From contig OX597830.1 of the NCBI GenBank assembly GCA_951406725.2, positions 66,340,001 to 66,404,000 of the forward strand: DNA of 64,000 bases, read 5' to 3'. Both the position numbers and the translations under genes were made by a program. Shown here piece by piece: positions 19,521-56,730 of this stretch. Source of the stretch: Octopus vulgaris (Eukaryota). The notes below the pieces were generated by a model, which saw only the letters and a list, made by a program, of their open reading frames with translations, did no database searches and was not told where the DNA came from. Numbering within the stretch: position 1 is the first letter of the stretch; the number at the start of each line of letters is the position of its first letter.

Positions 19521-20419
19521 TGCGTCGACAGGGTGACCAAATACTTGCAAGACAAAAACGTTTAAGAAGGGAGGGGGCATTGTAGGATGTGATGATGAAA
19601 AGGTTATAGTGAGACAAATACAGGTGTCTTGCTGTAGAGGAAGTACAAGTTTACCTGGCTGGAGAGAGAAAGATCAAGAATGGAAACAGAAACAGGTGTG
19701 CTACTACAAAGAAAATACACGGTTGCCCAACCCGAGGAAAGTGCAGGAGAAGGAGAGAGAGAGAGTGGGAGACAGACATTGTAGAGGACAACTTGCCCAA
19801 GGTGCCATGCAGTGAGACTGAACCTGAGACCATGTGGTTGGGAAGCAAACTTCTTAACCACACAGCCATGCTTGCACCTACACCACACCTGCACCTGTTA
19901 AATGAAAAATCATATTTTGTGTTCAAAAACAAATTTAACTACAGCTGAAGTTTTTGACTTGTTTGTGTTATTTAAAGCCATGGCTTATAACAATCACAGC
20001 AATGATGATGATGATAATTATCAAGAGTTGCTTAATTGTAGAAGGAATCTTATTAATATTAAAAAAAAAAGGAAGAAGAAAAACTTATTGCTTTCAGATA
20101 TAAAATAGCATAAATTTCTTTTCATTCTGACATTTTCATTGCTTCCAAAATAATGCAAATGTAATTAAAGTTGATTAAAATAACCCAGAAATAAATGAAA
20201 GTAAATAATTAACTCTAAAATTTCTAATTTTGTTCTATTCTCTAATATTTGTTTGTTCTACATCTTGTCTATCATTGTCACCATCACCACCACCACCACC
20301 ACCACCACCACCACCACCACCACCACCACCACCACCACTACCTCCACCACCACCACCACCACTACCTCCACCACCACCACCACCACCACCGAAATTTGGG
20401 GTGGGGGTGGGGTGCAAGT

Positions 20420-20935
20420 TGATTAGATCGACCCCAGTACACAACTGGTACTTAATTTATCGACTACCGGAAGGATGAAAGTCGACCTCGACAGAATCTG
20501 TACTCAGAATGTAAAGACAGACGAAATACCTATTTCTTTACTACCCACAAGGGGCTAAACACAGAGAGGACAAACAAGGACAGACAAATGGATTAAGTCG
20601 ATTAAATCAACCCCAGTGTATAACTGGTACTTATTTAATCGACTCCGAAAGGATGAAAGGCAAGGTCAACCTTGACGGAATTTGAACTCAGAATGTGAAG
20701 ACAGACGAAATACCTATTTCTTTACTGCCCGCAAGGGGCTAAACACAGAGAGGACAAACAAGGACAGACAAATGGATTAAGTCGATTAAATCAACCCCAG
20801 TGCATAACTAGTACTTATTTAATCGACTCCGAAAGGATGAAAGGCAAAGTCGACCTTGGCGAAATTTGAACTCAGAACGTAAAGACAGACGAAATGCCCC
20901 GTGTGCTAACGTTTCTGCCAGCTTGCTGCCTTTAA
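20420..20935 (-). mobile_element. SINE family B head-to-tail trimer
   Basis: Three units joined at the junction gaaatacc|tatttcttta. The central gcctttcatcctttcggggtcgataaa resembles the Meta/MESC-type SINE domain (recalled, unverified). Confidence 0.8.
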
Positions 20936-29900: not shown

Positions 29901-30293
29901 TTAGCCAGAAAAATCCGCGATGTACTGGGGGCGTGATAGGTGAACCGTGATATGGCGAGTGATTACTGTATTACATCAACCCCAGTGCTCAACTGGTATT
30001 TATTTTATTGATCCTAAAATGATGAAAGGCAAAGTCGACCTCAGCGAGATTTGAACTTAGAATGTAAAGATGAACGAAAAGTCACTAAGCATTTTTTCCA
30101 ATGTGCTAAAGACACATATTAAGCCATTCAAAAGCATCAAAAACTATTAACTTCTCTTAAAGATTTATTGTTTAATGTCAAAATTTTCATCATACCAACA
30201 GAGACCTGGTCACTGACATGGTTGTAATGGTACTCTAATAGTGACCAGGTCACAGTTGATGTAATGAAAATTATGATACTAAATAGCAAATGT

Positions 30294-30745
30294 TTAACCC
30301 TTTAGTATTCAGCTTTCTCTGTCAAATGTAATGCTTATTTATTTGCATTTTTGAAAATTAACCCTTTAGTGTTTGAACCAGCTGTATCCGGCCCAAATAT
30401 TCTACACATTTTATGCTCAAACTGGCCAGAACATGCATCTCACACCTACCCTGCAATGTCACTCCAAAAATAAGCAATTACATCTTTCCTATCTTGAAGG
30501 TTCAAAATAATATCAGATAAATTTTTTTAAATGTGAATAAATAAGGATTATTTTTGACAAATTAATCTGAACGCTAAAGGGTTAATCATGTGTTATCTTG
30601 TAACTTAGAGATTTTGAAGATGTGATTGCTTATTTTTAGAATGGCATTATGGAGTAGGTCTGATATGCTGAATCTGGCTAGTTTGAACATAAAGCGGGTA
30701 GAATATTTGGGCTGGATATGTCCAGTTTATATGCTAAAAGGTTAA
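30294..30745. mobile_element. TTAA-flanked MITE with an inverted self-copy nested at 30358-30585
   Basis: Same architecture as 25494-25936. Confidence 0.8.
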
Positions 30746-30978
30746 GTGAAGTTAAAGTTTTTGTGTTTTTCAAAGGCTAATATCAATCTTCCTCATGTGT
30801 GTGTGGGGTGGGTGGGTGAAAAACACAAATTTGAGAGATATGGAAATATTTTTTAGTCCTTGGTCTTTGATAATCCTTAAAAGTGTAAAGACCTCCTTCA
30901 ATAATGAATGACCATGAGATTGCATCTAGAAAGTTCCCCTCAGAGGCACAAGTCTGGGCAAGGTTGTTCGTGGAAGAC

Positions 30979-31110
30979 TTGTTCAAAGAGATCGAGATGA
31001 AAAGGATCGCTTGCATACGACTCGACTTGCCGTTCGGAGTGACGTGCTTAGTAGAGCAGCTACCACGCTGCGATCTATTGAGTCTCTTCTCACGAACGAC
31101 ACGATTCGAT
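30979..31110 (+). pseudogene. Retrocopied 3'-terminal fragment of 28S (LSU) rRNA
   Basis: A CpG-rich island containing tagtagagcagctaccacgctgcgatctattga (31049-31081), which matches the conserved metazoan 28S 3' end (…tagcagagcagctccctcgctgcgatctattga…), with an upstream gcatacgac/gtagacgac motif. Confidence 0.8.
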
Positions 31111-31343
31111 AAGGTGGTGAGCTGGCAGAATCGTTAGCACGCCGGCTGAAATGCATAGCCGTATTTCGTCTGCCGTTACGTTCTGAGTTCAAATTCTGCC
31201 GAGGTCGACTTTGCCTTTCATCCTTTCGGGGTCAATAAATTAAGTACCAGTTACGCACTGGGGTCGATCTAATCGACTTAATCCGTTTGTCTGTCCTTGT
31301 TTGTCCCCTCTGTGTTTAGCCCCTTGTGGGTAGTAAAGAAATA
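31111..31343 (+). mobile_element. SINE family B, full length with tail
   Basis: Head aaggtggtgagctggcagaatcgttagc; tail gccccttgtgggtagtaaagaaata. Confidence 0.9.
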
Positions 31344-31833
31344 GGTTGTTTATGGAAGACCAGCAGTCACCCATGCATACCAGCCTCCCCTTTCCACGCC
31401 ACTGATATTATCCAAGGGAAAGGCAAAGGTTGACACAGCTTGGCACCAGTGACATAGCACCTCATTTCTACAGCTGAATGAACTGGAGCAATGTGAATTA
31501 AAGTGTTTTGCTTGCTCAAGAACACAACACACAACCCAGTGTGGGTATTAAACTTACTACCTCATGATTGTGAGCTTGTGGCTCTACCCACTGAGCCATG
31601 CACTTTCAATATATATTAAGGCAGTGAGCTGGCAGAATTGTTGGCACTTTGGGCAAAATGCCTAGTGGTATTTTGTCCATCTTTATTTTCTGAGTTCAAA
31701 TTCTGCCACAGTTGACATTGCCTTTCATCCTTTCAGCATCAATAAAGTAGGTACCAAATGAGCAATGGAGTCAATGTAAGACTTGTCTTCTCTCCTGAAA
31801 TTGCTGAATTTGTGCCAAAATTTGAAACCAATA

Positions 31834-32060
31834 TTAACCCTTTAGTGTTCAGATTATTCTATCAAACATAATGCTTATTGATTCCCATTGATTTGAATTA
31901 ATCATGCATTATCTCATATCTTCAAGATCTTGATGGTGTAATTACTTAATGTTGAATAACATTGTAGGGTAGGTGTGAGAGCCTGGACCTGGTCAGTTTG
32001 AACATAAAACAGATTAAATATTTTGGCTGGATATGGCCGGTTTAAATACTAAAGGGTTAA
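31834..32060. mobile_element. TTAA-flanked MITE, uninterrupted (other copies at 43180-43362 and 63730-63876)
   Basis: ttaaccctttagt...actaaagggttaa. Confidence 0.85.
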
Positions 32061-33071
32061 TTTAGATTTTACGCAAAGTAACGGCACAATATATCACTGG
32101 AGATTATCATGTTTGCATCTAGTAGACTCAATGGGATTTGATCTCAGAAGAATGAGATATTGAATTAGATACAATAAAAGCATTCAGTCCCATGTTCTCT
32201 CTTCATGGCCAACCTCGTTCTTCACCAATCTTGTTCTTCAAAAATACAGAAAAATCTTTGTTTGTTGATTACGTTTTAGTATAAAAAAAAAAATGAAAAT
32301 AATCTGTGTAAATATGAAGAATTAAACTTTTAAATCAATTTGAATGTGTTTTTTTTTTCTACTTATCAATTTCTCCCCCAAGCATCTTAAAGGAATATAC
32401 GATCAATTTTTTGCATACTGAAGAGGATTCCAAGAGGATTCCAAGCATGTGCAGGCTCTTCTCGAGTGGAAGATCTCACATTAAATGCAAGGCCGCACAA
32501 GTCAAGCATCATTGATTTATAATTTTATAGGAGAAATTGAAAGTGCAGAACTTGATAATAAGTTTTCATCTGACTGCTGGGTGGTTTGTTAAAAATTCTG
32601 ATTCTAAAATATGGCTCCAGGCATCATCCAGGCAGCCACCCGTCTCTACCCTTTGACTTCAAGTTTAAGTGTTTATAGGTTTAAAACATACCACTCTTAA
32701 ATGTGGAGCTGCTGTAGATATTTTTGTTTTGCATTTGTTTGCTTTTTTTTTTTTGTATTTTTATTGTTAAAAGCAATTTTAATATTAAACGTAATTTTGC
32801 GGATAAATCTTTTGGGGTGTTTTTAAAAGAGATATTTTAGAGTAGCTTCCCGTTGCTTTATCTATTAAAACTTGGTTATGTGATATCGTTAAGAAGTTTG
32901 CTCTTCAACCACATGGTACAATTACACTGAGCAGCACTTTGAGTTGACCAATGACTTGCGAATAGAATTTATGGATACAGGTTCTGTGAAAATATGTCGA
33001 GCATGTGTGTGTGTGTGTGCACATGCATTTATGTGTGCAAATGTGTGTGTGTGTATGGATATATGTACATA

Positions 33072-33104
<33 letters not shown>

Positions 33105-33186
33105 TGGTAAAAACGGTAAGATAACAAAAGAAAGAAAGAGACCTCAATATTATGTAAATAGAAGAATTTATCTGTAAATGTAATAT

Positions 33187-33283
33187 GTGACAATTATTCA
33201 GATAACTGAAGAGATGGTGGTGTGGATTTCCACATCAGCATCCGAAACTCAGAGTTTTATCTTGGCTACCGAATAATTGTCAC
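33187..33283 (+). ncRNA. Type I hammerhead ribozyme motif (HHR1)
   Basis: Stem I agataa(33200-05)/ttatct(33257-62), extended by gtgacaattattc/gaataattgtcac. Core CUGAAGA at 33206-12. Stem II is 13 bp (gatggtggtgtgg/ccacatcagcatc, one mismatch, one extra C). GAAA at 33244-47; stem III ACU/AGU; GUU triplet at 33254-56. Confidence 0.75.
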
Positions 33284-33349
33284 CGCATGTGTACCGTTGG
33301 CGATTTTTTTTCCTCCGTCTTCCCTTCTCTGGATCTTTCCTTTTCCTAT

Positions 33350-33384
33350 GTTTCTGATGAAGAGCTCCGCTCGAAACGTTAAAC
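33350..33384 (+). ncRNA. Minimal type I hammerhead motif (HHR2), Penelope-type
   Basis: GUUU-CUGAUGA-A-GAGC(UCC)GCUC-GAAAC-GUU-AAAC: 4-bp stem I, 4-bp stem II and palindromic ACGU stem III. Confidence 0.75.
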
Positions 33385-33633
33385 CCTCCTTCTTTCCTTC
33401 CTTCCTGAGCGTCCAATAATACTATACTTGTTCCACGTCCTCGCATTGTTGTGTTTTCTCTTTGTGTTTTCATGCTTGGATTAACTTTATATATATATGT
33501 ATATATATACACGCATATATATATATATAGCTTTGGTAGTTAAACAAGTGAAATAGAACTCAATACGTGGATATATATATATACACTTTTAATATTTTTA
33601 ATTGGCATAAAATTACAAAAGAATATATATATA

Positions 33634-33684
<51 letters not shown>

Positions 33685-33749
33685 ATGAAGGTAAGTAAAA
33701 AATTATACACTGTAATCTTTTAAAACAAAAGCAAGTTTGAACAATTATA

Positions 33750-34020
33750 TCATTTTTTGACATAGTCTCTCTCCTTGCATTTTGATGCACTTCTTACAGT
33801 AGTGCACAAGTTTGCATATTCCATTGGAGAAGAAGGTTGTTGGTTGGTTGTGCAACCATATATGCAGTACTTTTTGCCCTTTGCCTGTAGTAAATTGATG
33901 ACCTCATGAAGATGTTTGAGCAGTCCAAGGAGGTGATAGTAAAAAGGGGAGAAATCTGGTCTGTATGCAGGGTGTCCCAGCAACTCAAAATCCCAGTCAT
34001 TTTTAATGGTTTCAATGTGT
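33750..34020 (-). pseudogene. Mariner-family transposase C-terminal relic (frameshifted)
   Basis: FELLGHPAYRPDFSPFYYHLLGLLK corresponds to the mariner HPxYSPDLAPSDYHLF motif. The next frame gives WLHNQPTTFFSNGICKLV..KKC, then DYVKK*. Confidence 0.85.
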
Positions 34021-35212
34021 GTATGTGTGGGGGTGGTACATGGAGCTTTCTTTTTATTCTTTATGAAGAAGATCAACAAACTATTTTTTATAAAATACAT
34101 AAAACATTTTTTTCGCCTTTCTTTAATTTCACTGCTCTCTCTTGAGAAAGAGCTTCTGCACGAAATGTTGATACTTTTTCTATCTCCACATGGCTTAATA
34201 TAGTGGCATTGTTTTATTTTTAGCATAATTTTTTGGGGGAGGGATTACTTTTATCAAATGCAGATCAACAAGTAGATTACTTGGATTCTAGATTTGTTAC
34301 CTTTTTATATTTCTTTTTTAGTATATTTCTAAAAAAAAAAATGTCCTGTATAGTCTTGTTATCAGTAACTTTACTGAGTAATTCCATACAAGTGGTAATT
34401 CACGGAGATATATCACTGATAAAGGCAAATGGTTGGAGTTTGAAGTTTGTAACATCAATGTGGGAAGAATGTGATATTTTATTGTGACATCACAAAATGT
34501 CAAGGAAGGTCAGCATGTACTTTCTACGATAGTAGCAATCTAATTGCAAGTGGTTATGTTGATTGTAATACACACAATAGAAGCTGTGATTGCTTTTACT
34601 ACTTATTTTTCATTATTGTATCATAAAAGAACAAATGTCATTGAATATCTTTCGGAAAAATATCAAAATGACACAATTTATTCCAGTCTTTATTTCACAG
34701 ATAATGAAGCAAATTTAATGCTAATTATTTGTTCACAAAATCTTATTGAGACTGACCATTGTTGCAATGTTAGCTAGATTTACAACTAAACGTTTGTAAT
34801 TGATGAAAATCAGTGAGGTCCAGAAAAAAAAAATACATATAAATATATATGTACAAAGAAATATCCTTATAGTTTGTGAGAACCTGACCTTTTAATTTCC
34901 TTCGTTTTCACTCTTGGTGTTGTATGTTGGTTTAAAGCTGGTCTGGTTTTCTGTTGATATTACAGAAAAACAAAGCCTTTTTATACAGTCAAGCGATTAA
35001 ACCTGTTAACAGATGACATTTGTTCTGTGATTATAATTTTCTTTATAAGGACTCCATGCATCAACCTTTTCCATTTATTTACTGTGATTTTGTTATGAAA
35101 GATCAGCGAATCAGGTACAGTGATTGTAGTTCTGTTAATCCCAGGAAAATTGGTCGTTCTTGCTTCAAGAGCAAATTGACATTTTGAAGCTATTGTTGTT
35201 CTTTTGGGAAAT

Positions 35213-35251
35213 CTACTACTACCACCACCACCACCACCACCACCACCACTA

Positions 35252-35300
<49 letters not shown>

Positions 35301-35315
35301 CATTGCTACCGTTAC

Positions 35316-35348
<33 letters not shown>

Positions 35349-35357
35349 TGCTACCGT

Positions 35358-35390
<33 letters not shown>

Positions 35391-35423
35391 TGCTACCGTT
35401 ACTACTACTACTACTACTACTAT

Positions 35424-35520
<97 letters not shown>

Positions 35521-35528
35521 GCTACCGT

Positions 35529-35582
<54 letters not shown>

Positions 35583-35638
35583 CACCACCACCACCACCAC
35601 CACTGCTACCGTTACTACTGCTGCTGCTGCTGCTCATG

Positions 35639-35673
<35 letters not shown>

Positions 35674-35686
35674 GCTGCTGCTGTTG
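35213..35686. repeat. (CTA)n/(CCA)n compound microsatellite with recurring ctgctaccgtta spacer
   Basis: Direct inspection. Confidence 0.95.
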
Positions 35687-35910
35687 CCAAGTCATTAGGA
35701 TACTGGATGATTAAGAGGTCAGTGAGTTATGTCCTATTACAGTCATTCTACTATATATAGCTCAGATTGATACAGTAAGCTCTCATTGGTTAAGTCAACC
35801 TCACTGTCAGTATTACACCATGGGTTGGTACTAATTCCCTACTATAAACTGTGGCTTTCACATAAAACTTGTGAGTAATTTGCTGACTTGCTATTCTTTC
35901 CATGGGAGTA

Positions 35911-36810
35911 AAAGTCAACTAGTCTGGTGTGATACTGTAACTCTACTTTAATCTGAGATTTCCAAGAACTGGTGGATGAAGTATATATTTTATTGTCACT
36001 TTAACCTTTAGAATGCTTAGACACATCATGGTGCGGTATGAATTTTCTCCCTTGTAGATACAGGTGCATTGTGTTGCATTGAGAGGGGAGAAAACTTGTA
36101 TGGTGACATGATGCGTCTACAGCATGCTAAAGGTTAAAGTCAACTAGTCTATTGTGATACTGTAACTGCACTTTAATCTGAGATTTCCAAGAACTGGCGG
36201 ATGAAGTATATTTTATTGTCTCTAACCTTTAGCATGCTTAGGCATATCATGGTGCAGTATGAATTTTCTCCCCTCTAGATTATATATATATACATTGTGT
36301 TGCATTGAGAGGGGAGAAAACTTGTATGGTGACATGATGCGTCTACAGCATGCTAAAGGTTAAAGTCAACTAGTCTATTGTGATACTGTAACTGCACTTT
36401 AATCTGAGATTTCCAAGAACTGGTGGATGAAGTATATATTTTATTGTCACTTTAACCTTTAGAATGCTTAGGCATATCATGGTGCAGTATGAATTTTCTC
36501 CCCTGTAGATACAGGTGCATTGTGTTGCATTGAGAGAGGAGAAAACTTGTATGGTGACATGATGCATCTACAGCATGCTAAAGGTTAAAGTCAATTAGTC
36601 TATTGTGATACTGTAACTGCACTTTAATCTGAGATTTCCAAGAACTGGCGGATGAAGTACATTTTATTGTCTCTAACCTTTAGCATGCTTAGGCATATCA
36701 TGGTGCAGTATGAATTTTCTTCCCTGTAGATACAGGTGCATTGTGTTGCATTGAGAGGGGAGAAAACTTGTATGGTGACATGATGCGTCTACAGCATGCT
36801 AAAGGTTAAA
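35911..36810. repeat. Four tandem ~225-bp units, each containing a ~135-bp hairpin MITE (taacctttagcatgct...agcatgctaaaggtta)
   Basis: Units start at 35911, 36136, 36362 and 36587. Confidence 0.92.
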
Positions 36811-37022
36811 GGATGCTAGTCATTTGCTCTGAGAAGATATTCCTTCTTTCCTATACTTGCGAGGAGGGACATCTTTGGCATGTTCTTTTATTGCTGTTGT
36901 TGTATCTGGTTTATCAATCTGGCGTCGGCCAATCGGTTGTAATTGTCTAGATGCTGATGAATTGGCTCAGCTGATTGGACACTCAGCCTATTTTTGGCAA
37001 CTGTACATTTTATCACTGAAAG

Positions 37023-46657: not shown

Positions 46658-47149
46658 TGTATACATGCACACACACACACATGCGCACACTCACATTCAC
46701 ACACACACACACACATATATAGTTAAAAAAAGTAAATAAACTTGCAAAAGGGCACAGAATTATATTGTAGCAAATTTTTGATAAAATATTACCAGTTTCA
46801 ATGTATCCATCTTATCAAATATTACAAATATTAGAAAGAATTCTTTTGGGAATCAGAGAAAAAAAGACATTTTTTGTGTGTGTGTGTGTGTGTGTGGGGG
46901 GGTTAACAGTTTGTATCCAAATTTCAGTCCTACATATATATATAGATATATATCTACGTATATATATATATTCTTCGACCATGTAACAACACCTGTGCTT
47001 TTCCTTGCACTGTCTGTTCCTTCCTCTTTTCCTCCTCTCTGGACTTTTTCCTCTTTCAGATGAAGAGCAACACTCGAAATATCATTCCACTCCTATTTTC
47101 CATCTAAAACTTTCACTGAGTGTCTTGTCTTTTCCTGTTTATTTATGAT

Positions 47150-47183: not shown

Positions 47184-47231
<48 letters not shown>

Positions 47232-47491
47232 TTGATTTTTGATATTTGTGTGGCATCGTCTGTTTTCTGTCCTTGCTTCATATACATTCGATCCTTTTTC
47301 CAAGAAATCTAATGCTCGTAGCTTAGTTTTTCCTTGGGGCTGGCCGGATCGGAGCGATCTCAAGATTAACCAGCCGAAATTGCTACGATGATCCGGTTCT
47401 TGATTAAAGATTGTGGGCTTCGAATGTCCCGTTCGTGTTTTTTGTATCGTCTTCTAAGTGTTTTGCGTTCTCGTCCCAGTTTGTATTTTTC

Positions 47492-47526
<35 letters not shown>

Positions 47527-52872: not shown

Positions 52873-53685
52873 TTATATAGAAAGTATTTTGCGTAGGATA
52901 TGAGCAGTTCCCATGAGCACTATCTTTTGAACTTCTGCCATTTTTGGGTTTCCTGGTATCTGAGTTAGGTAGCTATCAGCCCCTTTTGCTATCATTCCCA
53001 GGGCACCTATGACAACAGGTATTGTTTTAGTCTTCAGCTTCCACATTTTGCTGATTTCTATTTCAAGATCTTTATATTTGCTCAGTTTTTGGTAGGTCTT
53101 GACAGATACGTTTATATCGATTGGGACAGTCATATCAATGAGGAGGCATGTTCTTTGTTTGAAGTCTTTCAATATGATGTCTGGCCTATTTGCATCTATC
53201 TTCCTGTCAGTTTGAATGGTGAAGTTCCAGAGGAGTGAGATGTGGTCATTTTCAAGCACTGGGGGTGGTTTGTGTTCCCACCAGTTTTTTTCATGGGGCA
53301 AATCCAGGTTTTTACAGATTACCCAGTGAATATATTGTGCAGCTCTATCGTGCCTGTTGAGATACTCTGTAGGCGCTAGAAGACTGCACTTGGAGACCAC
53401 ATGGTCAATGGTTTCATTTTGTTGCTTGCATACACAACACGTTGGACTGCTTCTGATCTTTAATATGTTGGCCTGGTAGTTTCTTGTTGGTAGGCATTGA
53501 TCTTGAGCTGCTATGATAAACCCCTCTGTTTCAGATTTTAAGCCAGAGGCCATTAGCCATTGATGGGTCAGGGCTTTGTCGATATCTGCATTATTCGCTC
53601 TCTTTGGGTATTTGCCATAGAGAGGTTTTTCTTGCCATTTATTATTCAGAATATCTAAGGCTGCAGTTTTGGCATGGGTTTTCAT
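52873..53685 (-). CDS. C-terminal part of the LINE ORF: CCHC zinc knuckle plus PD-(D/E)xK restriction-like endonuclease
   Basis: CVCKQQNETIDHVVSKC, RHD, RPDII..LLIDMTVP, KLSKY; continues the RT ORF across a frameshift near 53690-53710. Confidence 0.92.
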   Translation of the reverse strand: MKTHAKTAALDILNNKWQEKPLYGKYPKRANNADIDKALTHQWLMASGLKSETEGFIIAAQDQCLPTRNYQANILKIRSSPTCCVCKQQNETIDHVVSKCSLLAPTEYLNRHDRAAQYIHWVICKNLDLPHEKNWWEHKPPPVLENDHISLLWNFTIQTDRKIDANRPDIILKDFKQRTCLLIDMTVPIDINVSVKTYQKLSKYKDLEIEISKMWKLKTKTIPVVIGALGMIAKGADSYLTQIPGNPKMAEVQKIVLMGTAHILRKILSI

Positions 53686-55580
53686 GCGCCTAGCTTTTTC
53701 TGTGCTTTTGTTTCTTGTATATCTATCTCTAATTCCGAAATTGGTTGTATTCGGAATTCACTTAGATATTCCTTTGCCTGTTTTGTGACTGAGTATGATG
53801 CTTTCTTGTTTTCATGTTTTGAGACAAGTTTTAACATCCAGTCCTCAGAGTTTTTCAGGTAGGTGTCTAGGCCAATTGTAGCAATCTTCATTGTTATTGC
53901 CAGTTGCAAAAGACCATGGCCTCCCTCTTTTCTTGGCAGATAGAGTCGTTCTGTATCTGCCTTAGGGTGGTGCATTCTATGCATTGTCAACAGTTTCCTT
54001 ATTTTTCTGTCGAGCTGACATATTTCAGTAATTGACCAGTTAACAATATTGAAACTGTAAGTCACGACTGGTATAGCTAATGCATTGATCGCTTCGATCC
54101 TGTTTCTTGCATTCAGCTCTGTCTTGAGTATTGCTCTCACTCTTCGATAGCATTCTCTCCTGATCCTTTCCTTCATCTCTGAATGCCTTATTCCGTTCCC
54201 TTCAATTACCCCTAGGTACTTGTAGCTCTCCGCTGGGTCTAGTTCTTTTATGACATTCTGTTGGTCAAGGTTAACGTTAGATGTTTCTGTCATTTTTCCT
54301 TTGATAAAGGTAGCCTTTGCACATTTATCGAGGCCGAATTGCATTCTGATGTCGTCACTGAATTGTTTGACTATCGCTAGTAAGCCCTTGAGTTGTTGAT
54401 CATTTTTTGCAAAAAGCTTTAAATCATCCATGTAAACGAGATGATTTATATTTTTATCAAACATTTTATACCCGTACTGCGCGTCATTGAGCAGCTTTGA
54501 GAGAGGTATTAAGGATAAACAAAAGAGGAGTGGTGACAGTGAGTCACCCTGGAAAATGCCACACAAAATGTTTACATCACCAGCATTTAGGGATTCACTG
54601 TCACTGTTCAGAGTTAGTGTGGTTCTCCATGATCTCATACTTACAGTCAAGAAGTTTCGCAGAGTTGGTGCTATCTTATACATTTCAAGGCATTTCCTAA
54701 TCCAGCTATGTGGTAGGCTATCAAAAGCCTTTTTATAGTCTATCCAGGCTATTGATAAGTTTTTGTGTCGTTTGTGACAATCTTCTAAGATCATCTTATT
54801 GATGAGTAGTTGGTCTTTACAGCTGTAGGATCCACGTTTACATCCTTTCTGTTCATTAGGGAATATGCTGCTGTCTGTTAAAAACCTATAGGTATATTCC
54901 GTCAGGACAGATGTTAGTGTTTTGTACATAGTTGTTAAGCAGGTTATGGGTCTATAGTTTTTTGGTTCATTTGTTTCTTCACTTTTTGGAAGCAGGAATG
55001 TTAACCCATTAACTAGCCAAGGAGGCATCCTACTAGGGTGTTGCAAAACATCATTGTACAGTTCTGTTAGCAGTTCATGGCTCTCTGGGAAGGCATTCAG
55101 CCAGAAGTTAGGAATTTTATCCTTTCCTGGAGACTTCCATTTGCTTGACCTCCTGAGAGCAGATCTTATATCTTCTACCTTGACACCCTCCCACTTTTGC
55201 TCTTCTAAGGGGTCCAGTTCTGTAGATATTCTGTCAATCCAGAGGGCCTTTTCGTTGTGTGTTTTTTGTTCTGCCCAGATTTTATTCCAAAATCTCTGCA
55301 CTTCTTCTTTTGATGGTACAGACCCTGCAGTAAACGCTGTTTTTCCTATCTTCCTGTAAAAATTCTTGGTGTTATTTTTGAACATGTTGTTGTCCTTGAA
55401 AAATCTAACACGCTTTTCATACCTCGCTATGCGGGCAGCTTTGGCAGATACCTTTTGTTTGATGGTTTCTATGGTGGCATCAATATCAAGTATAGTTTTC
55501 ATATTGTATTTTTTCAGTAATTTTGGGGTTTTTGTAGGTTTGGTAGTCTTGTGAGCCTTAAGGTTTTTCAAATATTCAAA
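53682..55580 (-). CDS. Reverse transcriptase domain of the LINE ORF (the N-terminal poly-M/I is microsatellite read-through)
   Basis: YRPITCL, QKG, WIDYKKAFDS, GIFQGDSLSPLLF, YMDD, FGLDKC and YKYLG motifs. Confidence 0.95.
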   Translation of the reverse strand, partial: FEYLKNLKAHKTTKPTKTPKLLKKYNMKTILDIDATIETIKQKVSAKAARIARYEKRVRFFKDNNMFKNNTKNFYRKIGKTAFTAGSVPSKEEVQRFWNKIWAEQKTHNEKALWIDRISTELDPLEEQKWEGVKVEDIRSALRRSSKWKSPGKDKIPNFWLNAFPESHELLTELYNDVLQHPSRMPPWLVNGLTFLLPKSEETNEPKNYRPITCLTTMYKTLTSVLTEYTYRFLTDSSIFPNEQKGCKRGSYSCKDQLLINKMILEDCHKRHKNLSIAWIDYKKAFDSLPHSWIRKCLEMYKIAPTLRNFLTVSMRSWRTTLTLNSDSESLNAGDVNILCGIFQGDSLSPLLFCLSLIPLSKLLNDAQYGYKMFDKNINHLVYMDDLKLFAKNDQQLKGLLAIVKQFSDDIRMQFGLDKCAKATFIKGKMTETSNVNLDQQNVIKELDPAESYKYLGVIEGNGIRHSEMKERIRRECYRRVRAILKTELNARNRIEAINALAIPVVTYSFNIVNWSITEICQLDRKIRKLLTMHRMHHPKADTERLYLPRKEGGHGLLQLAITMKIATIGLDTYLKNSEDWMLKLVSKHENKKASYSVTKQAKEYLSEFRIQPISELEIDIQETKAQKKLGA

Positions 55581-55611
<31 letters not shown>

Positions 55612-55613
55612 GA

Positions 55614-55753
<140 letters not shown>

Positions 55754-55769
55754 CCATCATCATTATCAT

Positions 55770-56730
<961 letters not shown>

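Follow-up and report, generated by a model that had tools for sequence, protein, structure and literature searches.

Do two different hammerhead ribozymes on one strand, set between two (TA)n tracts, make up a single mobile element that releases a small circular RNA, or were they brought together from separate sources? This question is raised by a short segment of the Octopus vulgaris genome, lying within the stretch of 64 kb that was analysed here as a whole (the window). The evidence below points to the second answer: the locus is most probably a composite insert within (TA)n microsatellite DNA, assembled from the hammerhead-bearing terminal units (pseudo-LTR type) of two high-copy families of Penelope-like element (PLE) type, referred to as families A and B.

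The core of a type I hammerhead was taken as C3-U4-G5-A6-N7-G8-A9, G12-A13-A14-A15 and U16-H17, and both motifs of the window copy, HHR1 and HHR2, possess it. On both strands of the 64-kb window, the scan for type I hammerheads returned exactly two matches, with cores at 33206 and 33354, while each of 100 dinucleotide shuffles under the same scan returned none. Two same-strand motifs with predicted cleavage sites at 33256 and 33380, as the sequence-only reading of this DNA had described them, can thus be read in place, and the interval that it had proposed as an excised RNA (33257-33380) does measure 124 nt. An extra unpaired C at the base of HHR1 stem II, adjoining G12 (33242 or 33243), had gone unmentioned in that reading. 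The segment free of TA between the tracts covers 33104-33487 (384 bp), and the limits 33102-33489 add one TA per end. The Rfam hammerhead models, on which the same reading had counted as a check, lent no help: at the gathering thresholds the whole 64 kb gave no match of any family, and none of the 12 matches at E<=1 in 30000-37000 was a hammerhead, those near the element being microsatellite hairpins far below gathering. The parts of the locus are collected in Table 1.

Table 1. Features of the composite locus and of its two hammerhead motifs (window coordinates).
Feature	Position	Strand	Remarks
Left (TA)n tract, target	33082-33103	.	Inside a longer TG/TA microsatellite from ~33005; no TSD discernible
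Family A 3' end, inverted	33104-33199	-	Natural 3' terminus toward left (TA)n; loose ends at 33199 and 33283
5' arm of 13-bp inverted repeat	33187-33199	+	Terminus of the inverted A copy; no part of the ribozyme across the family
HHR1 13-bp helix	33187-33199/33271-33283		Past an 8-nt bulge
Family A fragment, sense, 5'-truncated at stem I, bears HHR1	33200-33283	+	Foreign letters before 33201; depth
HHR1, type I hammerhead, long stem II and palindromic helix III	33200-33262	+	Predicted cut after 33256
HHR1 stem I	33200-33205/33257-33262	+	6 bp
HHR1 core CUGAAGA	33206-33212	+	
HHR1 stem II	33213-33225/33230-33242	+	12/13 positions paired, 4-nt loop
HHR1 GAAA	33244-33247	+	
HHR1 helix III, palindromic	33247-33255	+	
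HHR1 site GUU	33254-33256	+	
Overlap (6 nt) of A (ends 33283) and B (starts 33278)	33278-33283	+	Loose ends on both sides
Family B unit, ~210 bp, without a few of its own 5' bases	33278-33487	+	3' end toward right (TA)n; depth, head-to-tail joints
HHR2, minimal type I hammerhead	33350-33384	+	Predicted cut after 33380 only as dimer or with help
HHR2 stem I	33350-33353/33381-33384	+	4 bp
HHR2 core CUGAUGA	33354-33360	+	
HHR2 extra A after A9	33361	+	
HHR2 stem II	33362-33372	+	4 bp
HHR2 GAAA-C-GUU	33373-33380	+	Without helix III loop
Right (TA)n tract	33488-33530	.	

The closest relatives of these motifs are the minimal hammerheads of metazoan PLE pseudo-LTRs (Cervera and de la Pena 2014, PMC4209133), described there as sitting in PLE terminal repeats, mostly singly and in truncated copies. 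HHR2 displays all of the features given for them: a 4-bp helix I, an extra base between 9 and 10.1, the G10.1-C11.1 pair, a palindromic 15.2-16.2 and neither helix III nor loop 3. HHR1 likewise carries G10.1-C11.1 and the palindrome, but its extra base lies on the 3' side of stem II instead; it resembles the variants in the same paper that have a small palindromic helix III, a long helix II and a bulge. In further contrast to that description, where close pairs are 100-700 bp apart on opposite strands, here two unrelated motifs lie 124 nt apart on one strand, and no linked ORF turned up among the frames nearest to them.

Whether the 384 bp travel as one unit was judged from other copies. The stretch was found in 20 of 24 listed public runs, from 9 studies and under four organism labels, with up to 0.81 of 36 sampled words present; in the whole-genome raw-read run X22, which bears the organism label of the best-matching run, only 2 reads among 1,934 million letters matched 33090-33500, a result that counts against the composite. 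Copies were compared over 33090-33500 in three contig sets, X7, X8 and X9 (14,950, 8,845 and 6,636 contigs aligned; X9 is an RNA run by guess only), and the best-supported 18 of the 732 loose ends were considered, the counts of loose ends and joints taking in contigs that part from the window and not those that cross the junctions as the window does. Among these best 18, contigs in all three sets break at 33199/33201 and again at 33278/33283, and beyond the breaks they enter either the reverse complement of the opposite side or foreign DNA. The loose ends behind 33199 (16 contigs in X9, 38 in X7 and 28 in X8) agree with the minus strand of 33250-33270 apart from 2 mismatches, and those behind 33283 (33, 63 and 48 contigs, respectively) with the minus strand of 33171-33186 apart from 1 mismatch; matches of these lengths, 21 and 16 nt, arose in 0 and 3 of 100 shuffles. 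Because both sets of ends match the minus strand, the hammerhead in other copies runs directly into the reversed left-end sequence. Before 33201, 39 contigs (X7) have foreign letters, and therefore the 13-bp helix is not the usual stem I extension of family A. Before 33278, 41, 51 and 49 contigs (X9, X7 and X8) have AT-rich letters unlike HHR1, and therefore what lies to the right belongs to a family of its own, B, the start of which is a few bases further up. A two-ribozyme family of ~390 bp, the main proposal of the sequence-only reading, finds no support in this parting of the contigs at both internal junctions, which for the contigs counted approaches the refuting condition named in that reading, halves that never co-occur elsewhere; its fallback, a composite of two pseudo-LTR fragments, becomes the best reading.

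The locus consists of three segments: the 3' end of family A in inverted orientation, followed by the family A hammerhead and the family B unit, both forward. The 3' ends of the two families thus point away from each other, into the TA tracts. In its natural order family A has the hammerhead, then ~100 bases, then (TA)n. The helix at 33187-33199/33271-33283, which had been taken for an extension of stem I, is indeed present; it is the downstream 13 bases of family A, once inverted and once forward, and a by-product of the inversion through which a family end was duplicated. The 6-nt overlap between A and B is likely a microhomology junction. Several further observations agree with this division. 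Of the gaps that separate the 23 variant places listed, the widest two (60 and 59 nt, the next being 26) bracket the two junctions, an argument which presumes that differences near alignment ends go unlisted. Relative to the HHR1 bins, the summed depth (which is no copy number) is 18-87x in the B bins and 4-9x in the left-arm bins, and its interior minimum falls in bin 33202-33215 in X7, X8 and X9. Arranged in the natural order of family A, depth climbs toward the 3' end, as 5' truncation predicts, with Spearman coefficients of 0.85-0.98 for the first 9/11 bins and 0.44-0.87 for all 11, dips at the junctions contributing to the gradient. Family B forms partial head-to-tail tandems, two joints leading from 33463/33465 to 33288 (X9, X8). 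Joints that link the left arm to a forward HHR1 piece at other breakpoints make up 7 of the 15 listed (of 18 in all), each in one contig at a depth of 5-14; the breakpoints all differ, and therefore family A forms such inversions elsewhere.

A point against the composite is that these seven joints could be deletion derivatives of a low-copy A+B or palindromic family A subfamily, and since contigs crossing the junctions were uncounted, there is room for such a subfamily. The first alternative to be weighed is that family A commonly forms a short palindrome, with the hammerhead between an inverted and a forward arm and with the 13-bp helix as a fixed feature, so that only the joint to B is local. 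The loose ends at 33199 and 33283 would fit this arrangement too, as would the recurrence of the left arm followed by a forward HHR1 piece. We nevertheless hold it to be improbable: the 39 X7 contigs with foreign letters before 33201 speak against a fixed helix, the two long pieces of X7 over the left arm both end at 33199 and continue in other letters, and left-arm depth is 4-9x that of HHR1, where a palindrome would give 2x. Furthermore, the seven joints share no breakpoint, and the letters interposed in them match the inverted continuation in one case (33199 to 33250), whereas those of another joint (33139 to 33199) match a stem I arm that is different.

The composite reading agrees with what has been described for PLEs. 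These elements nick DNA that is AT-rich, leave copies that are 5'-truncated, inverted or in tandem, and bear hammerheads in their terminal repeats (PMC8557442, PMC4209133, PMC11167929), inverted 5'-truncated copies and (TA)n targets being typical (PMC8557442). In the (TA)n insertions of EN+ PLEs (Craig et al. 2021, PMC8557442), an inverted 5'-truncated copy beside a forward one, partial tandems and no discernible TSD are reported, and the same is found here: TA tracts flank both sides with no TSD to be discerned, loose ends behind 33498 run on in TA (X7, X8), and 5' truncation, inverted copies and partial tandems emerge from the loose ends, the joints and the depth gradient. The locus differs from those insertions in its two outward 3' ends from different families. 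The preference for (TA)n and the link to PLE-type hammerheads, both put forward in the sequence-only reading, are therefore borne out by the flanks, the motif architecture, the inversion and the partial tandems. For O. vulgaris, recent activity is recorded for 31 Penelope-like families (PMC13282606, Table 1), and Penelope/Poseidon, Neptune, Nematis and Hydra are the candidate clades for A and B, none of them singled out; Naiads fit less well because they lack canonical hammerheads. A search of the PMC8557442 supplement for three 13-nt motifs of the locus gave no match.

The units thus appear to work like PLE pseudo-LTR ends. Their assignment to PLEs follows from motif architecture and insertion pattern, and it counts against it that neither family could be linked to an ORF for RT or GIY-YIG. 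Among the 148 stop-to-stop frames nearest to the element (within ~10 kb; of 414 in the window), none matched Pfam at E<=0.01, so that the linked GIY-YIG/RT frame sought on the strength of the sequence-only reading, which in EN+ PLEs encodes a telomerase-like RT and a GIY-YIG endonuclease, did not turn up among them. A PLE RT/GIY-YIG protein acting in trans may have copied each family from a nick in (TA)n, a process that would yield 5'-truncated and inverted copies; the inversion of family A probably originated near the self-complementary stem I, and B may have been joined to A at the 6-nt microhomology, whether the template was switched within a single event or a second insertion followed. Upon transcription of the + strand, HHR1 could cut at 33256 with modest efficiency, whereas cutting by HHR2 would require another RNA of family B or the help of a protein, the 124-nt interval being presumably a by-product and not a replication intermediate.

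Predicted folding gives the two motifs very different prospects. The fold of HHR1 is more stable than that of its shuffles (z = -4.92), and in the ensemble helix III has a probability of 0.40 against 0.54 for a CUGA:UCAG pairing that blocks the core; therefore some activity of the HHR1 monomer is plausible (predicted). HHR2 alone is not significant (z = -0.97). Within 33150-33420 its stem I pair probability is 0.02, and as a monomer, having no loop 3, it does not attain the three-helix fold. For a similar minimal motif, cleavage was absent when it was alone and low when it was dimeric (PMC4209133); for HHR2 the active dimer, at -7.3 kcal/mol, is less stable than two monomers at -14.2 kcal/mol, and no second copy lies in cis. 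HHR1 is unfit as its partner because the stem I arms of the two motifs cross-pair over 0 bp either way; the two motifs were therefore rejected as a heterodimer in cis. As for the circular 124-mer, 147 of 200 shuffles fold as well (z = +0.65, 47% paired), and stem I at its junction would have 0 bp. Such a circle would hold no whole ribozyme and therefore could not regenerate the 384-bp unit.

On these models, excision of the 124-nt RNA as a circle, the central prediction of the sequence-only reading, would be unlikely. The reading that the 384-bp unit is a mobile, non-autonomous two-ribozyme element, in which both motifs cut and 33257-33380 is released and circularised, is about as improbable as a palindromic family A. 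It can draw on two intact cores on one strand between TA tracts, on an HHR1 stem II that is Watson-Crick at 33234 and 33237 where most of the contig depth differs, and on the best runs, which carry 0.69-0.81 of the 36 sampled words. The breaks at both junctions and the poor pairing of HHR2 and of the circle weigh against it. Neither junction is crossed by any of the 24 listed long pieces, an absence which proves nothing alone, and a joint from 33380 to 33257 is missing among the 15 joints listed of 18, a neutral result as contigs show no RNA ends.

A related scenario, which we judge highly improbable, would have an A+B chimera arise from one RT switch between two PLE-family RNAs and spread since at low copy, HHR1 cutting alone, HHR2 being helped in trans by abundant family B RNA or a PLE protein, and the 124 nt being ligated into a ribozyme-free circle. 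If true, two ribozymes of different kinds would here open a way to circular RNA, of which we found no description in the literature searched.

Least probable of all, A and/or B would be the ends of a short non-PLE mobile element with hammerheads (SINE-like, or monomers of classical tandem retrozymes), a reading compatible with the missing ORF link among the 148 nearest frames and with the many solo monomers of retrozyme families (bioRxiv 10.64898/2026.07.22.740005), but at odds with hammerheads of the minimal or atypical PLE type and not the canonical retrozyme type (PMC4209133, PMC7229834).

Moreover, animal retrozymes are derived from PLE pseudo-LTRs in bioRxiv 10.64898/2026.07.22.740005, and therefore the distinction between PLE and retrozyme is one of degree. 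Animal non-LTR retrozymes (Cervera and de la Pena 2020, PMC7229834; Li et al. 2026, bioRxiv 10.64898/2026.07.22.740005) are, like this locus, short, non-coding and AT-rich, with a type I hammerhead and a high copy number, and are probably mobilised by PLE proteins. However, they are described as one unit repeated in tandem, every repeat (at least two in a row) bearing the same type I hammerhead, and their highly self-paired circles of ~170-400 nt rebuild the ribozyme (PMC7229834). At the locus, in contrast, the two motifs differ from each other, are present once each and have stem I arms that do not fit together; the window has no tandem of the unit, and the interval is poorly paired and below that size range. 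Poseidon PAc of Anolis carolinensis (Frangieh et al. 2024, PMC11167929) shares with the locus the AT-rich targets and a minimal hammerhead close to the end of the element; its ORF starts within stem II, while no such ORF continues from either motif here. For PAc, a model of protein-assisted cleavage is given, and cleavage was not needed for insertion in vitro (PMC11167929).

Variation in the cores of the two families bears on the same issue. At window position 33355, U4 of HHR2 is C in 45-50% of contig depth (X7, X8, X9), and the matching G-to-A at the base next to it is absent from the listed variants, a pattern that suggests two family B subfamilies (U4 and U4C) of about equal abundance and not CpG decay. 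No family B variant of at least 5% is listed at G5, A6, G8, A9, stem II or GAAACGUU, and at N7, where the change does no harm, 92-95% of depth has C. The U4C change reportedly lowers activity in vitro considerably and still allows viroid infectivity, according to earlier work cited in PMC3088659. If a core-impaired subfamily has spread as well as the intact one, family B would provide a natural test of whether PLE hammerheads need to cut, in line with the insertion in vitro by catalytic mutants (PMC11167929). For HHR1, no variant is listed in GAAA, and CUGAAGA sits near the junction, where no variants get listed, as do the 5' partners in stem II that a covariation score would need. Its stem II is Watson-Crick here at 33234 and 33237, positions at which 99-100% and 86-92% of depth, respectively, have other letters; the difference at 33237 would fit CpG decay, and hairpin-templated repair is one idea for that at 33234. 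At 33243, the extra base before G12, T accounts for 47-48% of depth in X8 and X9 and for 4% in X7; therefore the proportions of subfamilies differ between runs.

As the ordinary PLE-type composite that it most likely is, the locus is instructive in two respects: pairs of same-strand hammerheads can arise by the joining of fragments, and a local inversion can create a helix such as the 13-bp one at HHR1. In addition, two octopus hammerhead families are outlined for which we found no counterpart in the literature; Repbase, Dfam and the O. vulgaris repeat library, which lay outside the search, may already hold them. Scans for exact patterns of family B yielded 0 loci in metagenome contigs, viral contigs and prokaryote genomes.

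Elsewhere in the window, the stretch at 46972-47145, set between microsatellites, is related to family B but decayed (71% over 93 bp, E = 0.002). The broken hammerhead that it carries at about 47055-47095 was considered as covariation evidence and rejected, core U4 being changed and stem I broken. Close by, at 47231-47495, a 265-bp unit between (TA)n tracts has a 7-bp inverted repeat around a GAAA-bearing stretch and fails the hammerhead scan, as do two tandem arrays, 20416-20895 (184-bp units, 2.6 copies) and 35911-36811 (225-bp units, 4 copies). Next to the composite, the minus strand has an open frame at 33750-34244 with no Pfam match, a motif of which, we presume, recalls the C-terminal part of a mariner transposase. 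A non-LTR retrotransposon on the minus strand at 52873-55781 has two frames (RVT_1, E = 8e-28, and zf-RVT) and is bounded by ATT/ATC microsatellites; we take it to resemble the R4/Dong type. It was discarded as a linked partner of the composite, since it is 19 kb off, sits in ATT/ATC tracts and combines RVT_1 and zf-RVT without GIY-YIG. A retroelement protein of the window is 84% identical to a protein of Octopus bimaculoides, a single match that points to octopus DNA, and the other 119 of the 120 listed matches reach at most 61%.
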